Shown piece by piece: positions 9,585-9,666 of a stretch of DNA of 64,000 nt. The translations under genes and the position numbers were made by a program. The number at the start of each line of letters is the position of its first letter. Within the stretch, counting starts at the first letter, position 1. Location: the sequence record NC_025447.1; one strand, written 5' to 3'. The notes beneath the pieces are model-generated. The model was not told the origin of the DNA and ran no database searches. It saw only the letters and a program-made list of their open reading frames with translations. Source of the stretch: Escherichia phage 121Q.

Positions 9585-9666
9585 CCGGGCGTATCTCAAC
9601 GGTCTTCTAAACCGTCGTTAATCGAGTAACTGGAGTATGCAGGTTCGAGTCCTGTCGCCTGGGCCA
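9585..9666 (+). ncRNA. tRNA-like element (non-canonical; no D-arm)
   Basis: Acceptor-like CCGGGCG/CGCCTGG + GCCA, T-arm GCAGG-TTCGAGT-CCTGT, internal copy of the tRNA-Ser anticodon arm with loop CTTCTAA; no room for a D-arm. Confidence 0.3.

Follow-up and report, generated by a model that had tools for sequence, protein, structure and literature searches.

A probable tRNA-Arg(UCU) of Escherichia phage 121Q with its D-arm strands swapped around the anticodon arm

Few features in biology are as strongly conserved as the order in which the arms of the transfer RNA (tRNA) cloverleaf follow one another along the chain. The known exceptions involve the loss of an arm (mitochondria), a change in stem lengths (tRNA-Sec, allo-tRNAs), or genes whose order is repaired during processing (split and permuted genes). 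In the split tRNAs of archaea, the gene segments depart from the canonical order, and processing restores a canonical mature tRNA. The permuted genes of Cyanidioschyzon merolae likewise have a non-canonical gene order, with a canonical tRNA restored by processing (PMC3728597). Metazoan mitochondrial tRNA-Ser(AGY/AGN), some of which carry the anticodon UCU, have no D hairpin and only a short linker between the acceptor and anticodon stems (PMC4013460, PMC9976931), while the 8/4 and 9/3 allo-tRNAs, tRNA-Sec and tRNA-Pyl, natural molecules off the 7/5 cloverleaf that escape standard finders and in part come from phages or metagenomes, differ in stem lengths and not in strand order (PMC5389517, PMC7609411). 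A 2020 review of natural non-canonical tRNAs lists neither a phage example nor a permuted D arm. Here, we analyzed a 64,000-nucleotide (nt) stretch of Escherichia phage 121Q (NC_025447.1; "the window" below means this whole stretch), in which an 82-nt element on the + strand (9585-9666) is, judging from sequence comparisons, probably a functional but topologically rewired tRNA-Arg(UCU) that decodes AGA. That the element has the rewired fold we regard as very nearly certain. Our confidence is high for the structure and moderate for the function. No description of this D-arm topology was found in the literature searched, which mostly did not include subscription journals.

Read from its 5' end, the element begins with an acceptor strand equivalent to canonical positions 1-7 (CCGGGCG, 9585-9591, pairing with 9656-9662), followed by the core nucleotides U8 and A9 (9592-9593). 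The next nucleotides are a TCTC strand equivalent to canonical 22-25 (9594-9597), a putative position-26 equivalent (A9598, opposite a 44-like C9623), and the anticodon arm ACGGT-CTTCTAA-ACCGT (9599-9615), with U33 at 9605, the anticodon TCT at 9606-9608 and A37 at 9609. The linker between the acceptor and anticodon stems is TATCTCA only, and direct inspection of the sequence finds no contiguous D hairpin after position 9. On the other side of the anticodon arm, the segment before the T arm reads CGTTAATCGAGTAACTGGAGTAT. It starts with an 8-nt connector (CGTTAATC, 9616-9623; family consensus C-R-TTAA-N-N), which leads from the anticodon stem to the next D-stem strand and occupies the site where the variable loop emerges. 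The connector is followed by a GAGT strand equivalent to canonical 10-13 (9624-9627), by the D-loop motif AACTGGAGTA (9628-9637), numbered by motif as A14 A15 C16 U17 G18 G19 A20 G U A21, with the A20 equivalent assigned by motif alignment to 9634, and by a U48 equivalent (9638). The T arm (GCAGG / TTCGAGT / CCTGT, 9639-9655) and the acceptor 3' strand CGCCTGG with the discriminator G73 (9663) and an encoded CCA (9664-9666) complete the gene (9656-9666). In other words, the segment 10-21, consisting of the 5' strand of the D stem and the D loop, would have been relocated from the gap between 9 and 22 to a site between the variable region and 48. C9595, T9596 and C9597 pair with G9626, A9625 and G9624, and T9594 faces T9627 (U.U) at the end of this relocated D stem.

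A preliminary description of the locus had proposed a structured tRNA-like gene with these boundaries, directly 3' of a tRNA-Ser(TGA); the sequence confirms its acceptor stem, T arm and encoded CCA as well as the stem that closes a 7-nt loop, and only a 4-nt spacer (ATAT, 9581-9584) separates the element from its neighbor. It had also held that the D arm is lacking, which is right for a linear cloverleaf but not for the molecule, since a D stem and a D loop do exist, placed differently along the chain.

In the proposed fold, the two D-stem strands would pair across the anticodon arm, producing a three-way junction of the acceptor stem, the combined D-plus-anticodon arm and the T arm. This junction could adopt the usual L, with the D stem stacked on the anticodon stem and the G18G19 loop at the T loop; such tertiary contacts, including that of the D loop with the T loop, are what the sequence would predict. 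Only three backbone links would differ from those of an ordinary tRNA (9 to 22, 43 to 10 and 21 to 48). In a canonical tRNA, the continuous strand 22-31 faces strands 39-44 and 10-13, which abut each other. Going by this textbook geometry, joining 43 to 10 with the 9-10 and 21-22 links opened looks geometrically reasonable. The element differs in this respect from all of the systems described above. In the D-armless mitochondrial tRNAs, the D stem and G18G19 are truly lost and the mitochondrial factors have co-evolved, whereas the element retains both in a relocated form, and its identity set is that of arginine rather than serine. In permuted genes of the Cyanidioschyzon type, the 3' half precedes the 5' half, and a canonical tRNA arises once the termini have been joined and cut anew. 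The element, by contrast, begins with the acceptor 5' strand and ends with the 3' strand and CCA, and only the internal segment 10-21 is displaced. Given these normal strand ends, the encoded CCA and helices that fit a direct fold, the mature RNA itself would be rearranged.

We compared the element to standard tRNA models. It has a 7-bp (base pair) acceptor stem with an unpaired discriminator and a 3' CCA, an anticodon stem of 5 bp whose 7-nt loop includes U33 and a purine at 37, and a 5-bp T stem with a T-Psi-C loop (TTCRANY). D-stem pairing and the D-loop consensus (A14, R15, G18G19, A21) are present as well, irrespective of chain order, and what is missing is a D hairpin formed contiguously by positions 10-25 ahead of the anticodon arm. 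ARAGORN called six tRNAs in the window, including the tRNA-Ser(TGA), and none at 9585-9666. A whole-window run of the Rfam tRNA model (RF00005) at the gathering threshold likewise reported nothing there, while a local search of 281 nt gave 32.6 bits (E = 2.7e-5, cut-off 29), in an alignment that swaps 15 D-arm positions of the model for 4 nt. Covariance models gave no canonical cloverleaf with other boundaries either, in line with the preliminary description. Three candidate matches were rejected. With a lowered threshold, ARAGORN proposed a "tRNA-Asp(atc)" at 9585-9666 that uses the real anticodon arm as its D arm and whose stems conflict with the covariation described below, and the matches to Rfam sX4 (18.4 bits, cut-off 70) and CRISPR-DR2 (15.6 bits, cut-off 37) were considered chance matches.

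The fold was evaluated by comparative analysis. Our alignment comprises 52 distinct sequences with the long connector, in 79 columns without insertions or deletions. The pattern used to scan IMG/VR fixed the anticodon loop, CNTTAA and AANNGGAGTATG, and left free the linker and the bases before GTAA; as the D-stem positions were free in this pattern, covariation in the D helix is not a selection artefact. Across the alignment, 98.5% of the pair cells of the four-helix structure are paired, with double changes in 18 of the 20 pairs, and the covariation score of 0.814 was reached by none of 500 shuffles, which gave 0.199. The acceptor stem shows double changes in all 7 pairs (99.2% of cells paired), the T arm in 4 of 5 (98.8%), and all 5 pairs of the anticodon arm covary. 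The D helix, which pairs 9595-9597 with 9624-9626 (columns 11-13 with 40-42), is formed in 100% of the 52 sequences. Shuffled alignments paired it in 78.9 ± 2.0% (0/500 reaching 100%), sliding the partner strand reduced pairing to 8-39%, and 22 double-change cells were counted against 3.6 expected. Nine Watson-Crick combinations occur (CTC/GAG, CGC/GCG, CAC/GTG, CAG/CTG, CGG/CCG, CAT/ATG, CTT/AAG, CGT/ACG and CCC/GGG); the free segments first seen to pair were TCTC/GAGT, TCAC/GTGT, TCAG/CTGT, TCAT/ATGT, TCGC/GCGT, TCGG/CCGT and TCTT/AAGT.

In the core, the D-loop motif AAYTGGAGTA is invariant save for two positions. TTC and A58 in the T loop do not vary at all, and neither do the equivalents of U8, A9, G12-C23, U13.U22, A14, A15, G18, G19, A20, A21 and U48, the last of which is also T in divergent relatives. 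Such invariance fits a preserved tertiary core, in which U8 and A9 would, by assignment from canonical tRNA, have A14 and the pair 12-23 as partners, and U48 would be the Levitt partner of A15. The 26.44-like pair is mostly A.C or C.A, with some A-U, C-G and U.G, a non-Watson-Crick pattern that appears to resemble canonical 26.44. The connector sequence CRTTAA is near-invariant across the long-connector family. Two further helices were considered and discarded. One would pair TATCTCA (9592-9598) with TGGAGTA (9631-9637), with 6 of 7 pairs in the window; TGGAGTA is invariant and its partner varies, so that pairs are broken and no covariation results. The other is the GTTA/TAAC hairpin, which the preliminary description had taken for a variable arm. 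Three of its pairs are invariant, the fourth, its sole variable pair, is broken in 11 of the 52 sequences, no covariation is seen, and it competes with the assignment of A14 and A15.

The same description had interpreted the anticodon arm as a duplicate of that of the adjacent tRNA-Ser, with which it shares an identical stem, and had suggested that the element might be a degenerate tRNA copy. In this scenario, a pseudogene would have arisen from part of the tRNA-Ser and the 3' half of a tRNA-Arg, and, besides the shared stem, the missing ARAGORN call and the approximately 92% identity of the 3' half to T5-like tRNA-Arg genes speak for it. However, the likeness to the tRNA-Ser stem is local to this phage, and other members have stems such as CCTGA/TCAGG, GCGGT/ACCGC or ACGGG/CCCGT. 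The canonical tRNA-Arg(TCT) of Mooglevirus Sf14 shares the identical arm ACGGT-CTTCTAA-ACCGT, and we therefore consider this arm to be the element's own arginine anticodon arm. At least 52 distinct sequences keep all four helices by compensatory change around an invariant single-stranded core, in at least five unrelated phage lineages and many metagenomic contigs, and the element occupies the Arg(TCT) slot described below, as the only Arg(TCT) gene of its set. A decaying duplicate is, in light of this, vanishingly improbable.

For the arginine identity of the element, we considered both its own determinants and those of its relatives. The identity set of E. coli arginyl-tRNA synthetase (ArgRS) consists of A20 as the main determinant, C35, U or G at 36, and A or G at 73 (PMC9976931). 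All of these are present in the element (A9634, C9607, T9608 and G9663, where the numbering of A20 is an assignment). Although the anticodon was left free in the scans, 60 of 62 long-connector members carry TCT, with TCG and CCT making up the rest, and no non-Arg anticodon was found on this scaffold. The loop CTTCTAA occurs in 50 of the 62, a purine discriminator in 57, an encoded CCA in 44, and UGGA, which includes A20, is invariant in the alignment. The anticodon TCT would read AGA, and possibly AGG as well. Among the 342 arginine codons in the long + strand open reading frames (ORFs) of the window, 65 (19%) are AGA; in E. coli O157, AGA accounts for 5.1% of arginine codons (PMC3606486). The host tRNA-Arg(UCU) has an anticodon loop identical to that of the element (sequence in PMC12482277), so that enzymes recognizing this stem-loop could still act on the latter. 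In 7 of the 18 members without an encoded CCA (L003, L012, L019, L023, L030, L149 and L173), at least 11 additional pairs between leader and trailer extend the acceptor stem to at least 18 bp, compared to a mean of 0.5 additional pairs in CCA-encoding members, which suggests a different processing route.

With canonical tRNA-Arg(UCU) (E. coli argU, T4, T5, UE-S1/G17, Sf14), the element has in common the loop CUUCUAA, stems of 7, 5 and 5 bp, the kind of T loop, a D-loop motif with G18G19 and A20, the purine at 73 and CCA, as well as the genomic slot and its neighbors. The canonical D loop of the UE-S1 tRNA-Arg is AATTGGATA, comparable to the AAYTGGAGTA of the element. Unlike in these tRNAs, positions 10-21 lie 3' rather than 5' of the anticodon arm, a conserved 8-nt connector replaces the 5-nt variable loop, and the D stem consists of 3 bp plus U.U.

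A blastn search with the element matched 683 phage records, 240 of which cover at least 80% of it, and a second query returned 250 phage records at E ≤ 1e-12. The hosts of the gene include Asteriusvirus, Felixounavirus (SME50, Felix O1), Vequintavirinae and Mydovirus (LTH01, KB57), Justusliebigvirus (phi92) and Sugarlandvirus (GZ8), and the IMG/VR pattern scans added dozens more distinct copies. No copy was found in the chromosomes, prophages and plasmids of 5,426 complete E. coli genomes. In a species-representative genome set, the element was present solely on contigs of metagenome-assembled genomes (MAGs) that resemble phage tRNA clusters. In all five annotated loci that we examined, the element lies inside a tRNA cluster, and across 89 element-bearing loci all 766 neighboring tRNAs called by ARAGORN are on its strand. 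One of these 89 loci also has an ARAGORN tRNA with anticodon CTA (listed as tRNA-Pyl), a possible amber suppressor.

The region of the window is 93-96% identical to several Asteriusvirus genomes of the PBECO4/121Q group. In the syntenic region of phage G17, the tRNA set is Gly(tcc), Ser(tga), Arg(tct), Ser(act), Met, Asn and Thr, and the set in the window is the same in the same order, differing only in that the rewired gene stands in place of canonical Arg(tct). Compared to UE-S1, the flanks in the window are conserved right up to the gene ends. Within Asteriusvirus, exactly 10 records have the canonical Arg(tct) allele, and none of these is among the carriers of the rewired allele. The same exchange is seen within Ounavirinae: Sf14 has a canonical Arg-TCT between Ile-GAT and Ser-TGA, and Felixounavirus SME50 has the rewired gene in its Ile-GAT/Ser-TGA interval, and the annotation of the displayed cluster contains no Arg-TCT. 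Only 2 of the 89 loci combine a TCT-type element with a canonical Arg(TCT), whereas Thr(TGT), Asn and Lys(TTT) were each counted 34-40 times. Comparative sequence analysis thus shows the helices, the core, the exclusively arginine anticodons of this branch and a one-for-one replacement of the canonical gene.

As to what kind of RNA this gene yields, the preliminary description had pointed to the two small stable RNAs of T4 (species 1 and 2, rnaC and rnaD), which also lie in a phage tRNA cluster. A stable RNA with a non-decoding role would agree with where the element lies, immediately downstream of a tRNA; in T4, rnaD and rnaC likewise come after tRNA-Arg. To compare them, we used a covariance model built from our alignment, with which family members score 82-102 bits and ordinary tRNAs at most 35 bits. 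When run with filters off on the T4 tRNA region, it gave 17.8 bits for rnaC, which is the tRNA background and reflects merely generic tRNA-likeness, and no hit for rnaD. The T4 RNAs are 119-139 nt long and do not match the rewired-D-arm model, and the element has a complete arginine identity set. The analogy therefore failed, and we consider a non-tRNA RNA of this sort very improbable.

Several observations weigh against the reading as a working rewired tRNA-Arg(UCU). The proposed fold has a predicted energy of -20.3 kcal/mol, compared to -21.4 without the D helix and -23.1 for the minimum free energy structure; the z-score of the single-sequence fold is -0.61 and the D helix is not recovered in it, nor was the 3-bp D helix predicted by RNAalifold on the alignment. 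The contacts U8-A14, A15-U48 and G18G19 with the T loop rest on invariant nucleotides and are hence beyond the reach of a covariation test, while the strict conservation of the CRTTAA connector is not accounted for by a rewired-tRNA model. Exclusivity with the canonical gene is not universal, as a canonical Arg(TCT) occurs beside a rewired one in loci L030 and L168. Furthermore, the altered backbone and the 8-nt bulge would need to be tolerated by the ribosome, EF-Tu and ArgRS, and for expression, processing, charging and decoding of the element we reason from sequence. With regard to the D helix, the covariation outweighs the energy-based counter-evidence, and a helix of 3 bp would have to be stabilised by tertiary contacts, as it is in real tRNAs.

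The family model also recovered intermediates with connectors of 3-5 nt, some of which have other anticodons. A dedicated scan for such short-connector genes yielded at least 120 loci. Among the matches listed (100 distinct), the acceptor, anticodon and T stems are all good in 86; the D helix of these has at least 2 of 3 pairs in 86/86 and all 3 in 60/86. With a relaxed parser, 89 distinct genes are obtained among the matches listed; they are as long as an ordinary tRNA (75-80 nt), and ARAGORN detects only 1 of them. Most of these 89 listed genes have arginine anticodons (ACG 31, TCT 24, CCT 10, TCG 1, CCG 1) or anticodons of Ile/Ile2 type (TAT 17, GAT 3, CAT 1), with a single exception, TTC. 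The D loops were compared among the members reported by the strict parser: Arg-type members have UGGA, with A20, and Ile-type members (TAT, GAT, CAT) have UGGU together with A73. A20 in the Arg type, and U20 with A73 in the Ile type, are what real isoacceptors would need. The anticodons of the members collected, with the one exception, suggest that the class is confined to the Arg and Ile isotypes. Cultured examples include Vibrio and Streptomyces phages, and the element of the window belongs to the long-connector branch, which is found mostly in enterobacterial phages. The class is widespread, with members in enterobacterial, Vibrio and Streptomyces phages as well as in many uncultured viruses. 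From these sequences, we lean towards regarding it as a structural class of functional tRNAs, not recognised before, whose two D-arm strands have exchanged sides of the anticodon arm.

Individual members of this class merit mention. In Streptomyces and other phage records, rewired genes may go by another name: the "tRNA-Phe(gaa)" of Streptomyces phage Mildred21 (L310 395-470; NC_042008 91367-91442) is a rewired tRNA-Arg(TCG) with the loop CTTCGAA, and rewired tRNA-Arg genes are mislabelled "tRNA-Val" or "tRNA-OTHER" in Yaboi (NC_048730, near 86692), Roth37, Riker_ER52 and REP11. Two rewired tRNA-Arg genes can occur together, as in the viral contig L054 (short-connector Arg(ACG) and long-connector Arg(TCT), 2689-2763 and 4029-4107) and in L174 (an Arg(CCT) and a divergent Arg(TCT)). 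Ile-type genes with U20 and A73 were found in L172 (5506-5582) and in about 20 loci within L190-L309, their Arg-type counterparts having A20 and mostly G or A at 73. The TAT and TCT forms are one anticodon base apart, which points to recruitment of one isotype from the other.

For the element itself, a possible route to function starts at a sigma-70-type promoter (9453-9480, + strand; TGGACA, a 16-nt spacer and TG-TATAAT, matching the consensus at 11 of 12 positions with an extended -10), which ends 10 nt before the tRNA-Ser(TGA) gene. The latter (9491-9580, + strand) is a canonical tRNA found by ARAGORN and scoring 61.7 bits with the Rfam tRNA model, and is the upstream partner in what appears as a dimeric arrangement. 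The promoter looks like it would drive tRNA-Ser and the rewired tRNA-Arg as a single transcription unit. From the joint transcript, the element would be excised by RNase P, charged by the host ArgRS via A20, C35, U36 and G73, and would then supply decoding of AGA, a rare codon in E. coli.

Alternatively, the element could act outside translation, as a mimic whose tRNA-Arg anticodon arm and elbow serve as a decoy or sponge for a host tRNA-targeting nuclease or toxin, or for a tRNA-modifying or tRNA-binding protein, thereby protecting the host tRNA-Arg pool or titrating an effector. Its backbone topology is unlike that of every tRNA known to be active on the ribosome, yet its anticodon loop equals that of the host, and the invariant CRTTAA connector could be a protein-binding site. 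Moreover, tRNA-targeting defences and phage tRNAs that counteract them are documented (PMC12409363, PMC13096335), although a defence system that targets tRNA-Arg(UCU) was not found in the literature searched. Against a decoy, all the features required for charging and elongation are kept here (the 7-bp acceptor stem, purine 73, CCA in 44/62, the T loop and A20). As the element replaces the canonical Arg(TCT), a decoy would also leave the phage without an AGA decoder of its own. Finally, anticodons vary within arginine (TCT, CCT, TCG, ACG, CCG) and to isoleucine, with matching changes at positions 20 and 73. We therefore judge a mimic to be unlikely, and prefer the reading as a tRNA-Arg(UCU) that is itself charged.

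Why the rearranged form exists is a separate matter. If the element is charged and decodes, the rearrangement is likely an adaptation in a conflict over tRNAs, either between phage and host or between phage and homing endonucleases. As our leading guess, the form may be kept through the spread of HNH homing-endonuclease cassettes, or through escape from a nuclease, acting on RNA or DNA, that recognizes canonical tRNA-Arg. Selection may in particular act at the level of DNA, such that the rewired allele is left uncut by, or travels with, the homing endonucleases of tRNA clusters, and its RNA is still a working tRNA; this explanation is compatible with a working tRNA-Arg, as it concerns only the reason for the form. 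HNH ORFs lie directly 3' of the element in SME50 and GZ8, where the two proteins belong to different Pfam HNH families without mutual similarity, and directly 5' of it in Mildred21. Locus L178 has a resident copy whose T loop is interrupted by about 770 nt of inserted DNA, in which lie an HNH_2 ORF and a second, complete but divergent copy. The element is also 84-90% identical between unrelated phage families, which points to horizontal spread, and its flanks in the window match those of UE-S1 up to the gene boundaries. Together, the HNH neighbors, the L178 insertion and the cross-family identity suggest spread by homing cassettes. On the other hand, an endonuclease that cuts the canonical allele and spares the rewired one is conjecture, no HNH gene lies beside the element in the window, and the strict conservation of the RNA tertiary nucleotides indicates strong selection at the RNA level too. 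Selection on DNA as the reason for the form is thus conceivable, but we hold it as a tentative and rather doubtful explanation. The split gene in L178, a Neisseriaceae MAG contig (CALFYC010000064.1), is a rewired tRNA-Arg(TCT) spanning 1458-2310; the insertion holds the HNH_2 ORF on the reverse strand (1570-2076) and the complete rewired tRNA-Arg(TCT), with a 4-nt connector (2103-2179), and the split copy has its 3' end (CTCTC CTAGCAG) at about 2294.

If a rewired tRNA-Arg(UCU) is indeed charged and decodes, an L shape with another backbone topology would pass RNase P, ArgRS or isoleucyl-tRNA synthetase, EF-Tu and the ribosome, implying that the translation machinery reads three-dimensional shape and not connectivity. 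Such a molecule would offer tRNA engineers a new scaffold for orthogonal or nuclease-resistant variants, and a handle on why phages carry tRNAs, be it the supply of AGA decoding, the evasion of tRNA-directed defence or arms races with homing endonucleases. The family would also reveal a blind spot in annotation. At least 250 GenBank phage genomes have an arginine tRNA gene that is unannotated or mislabelled, which distorts analyses of tRNA repertoires and codon usage. In a sample of 60 matched rows, most had no GenBank annotation or a spurious ORF at this place, and three had "tRNA-OTHER".

The surroundings of the element in the window contain further features. Four paralogous small ORFs of 54-66 amino acids, starting with approximately MTHEEWM, flank the tRNA-Ser/tRNA-Arg pair on the + strand (8979-9179, 9690-9854, 9851-10015 and 10012-10176); the last three are in tandem with overlapping stop and start codons, and homologues are found at the matching place in UE-S1 and G17. 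Four near-consensus sigma-70 promoters (11/12; TTGACT or TGGACA ... TATAAT) lie within 2 kb on the same strand. Those at 9453-9480 and 11425-11453 are just 5' of tRNA genes, and those at 10187-10214 and 10666-10694 are among the small ORFs. Anticodons with A34 other than that of tRNA-Arg(ACG) are unusual in bacterial systems. At 11464-11555 (+ strand), the window has a class-II tRNA with the loop CTACTAA and the anticodon ACT (Ser, codon AGT), without an encoded CCA, the counterpart of which is annotated in G17 as tRNA-Ser(act).

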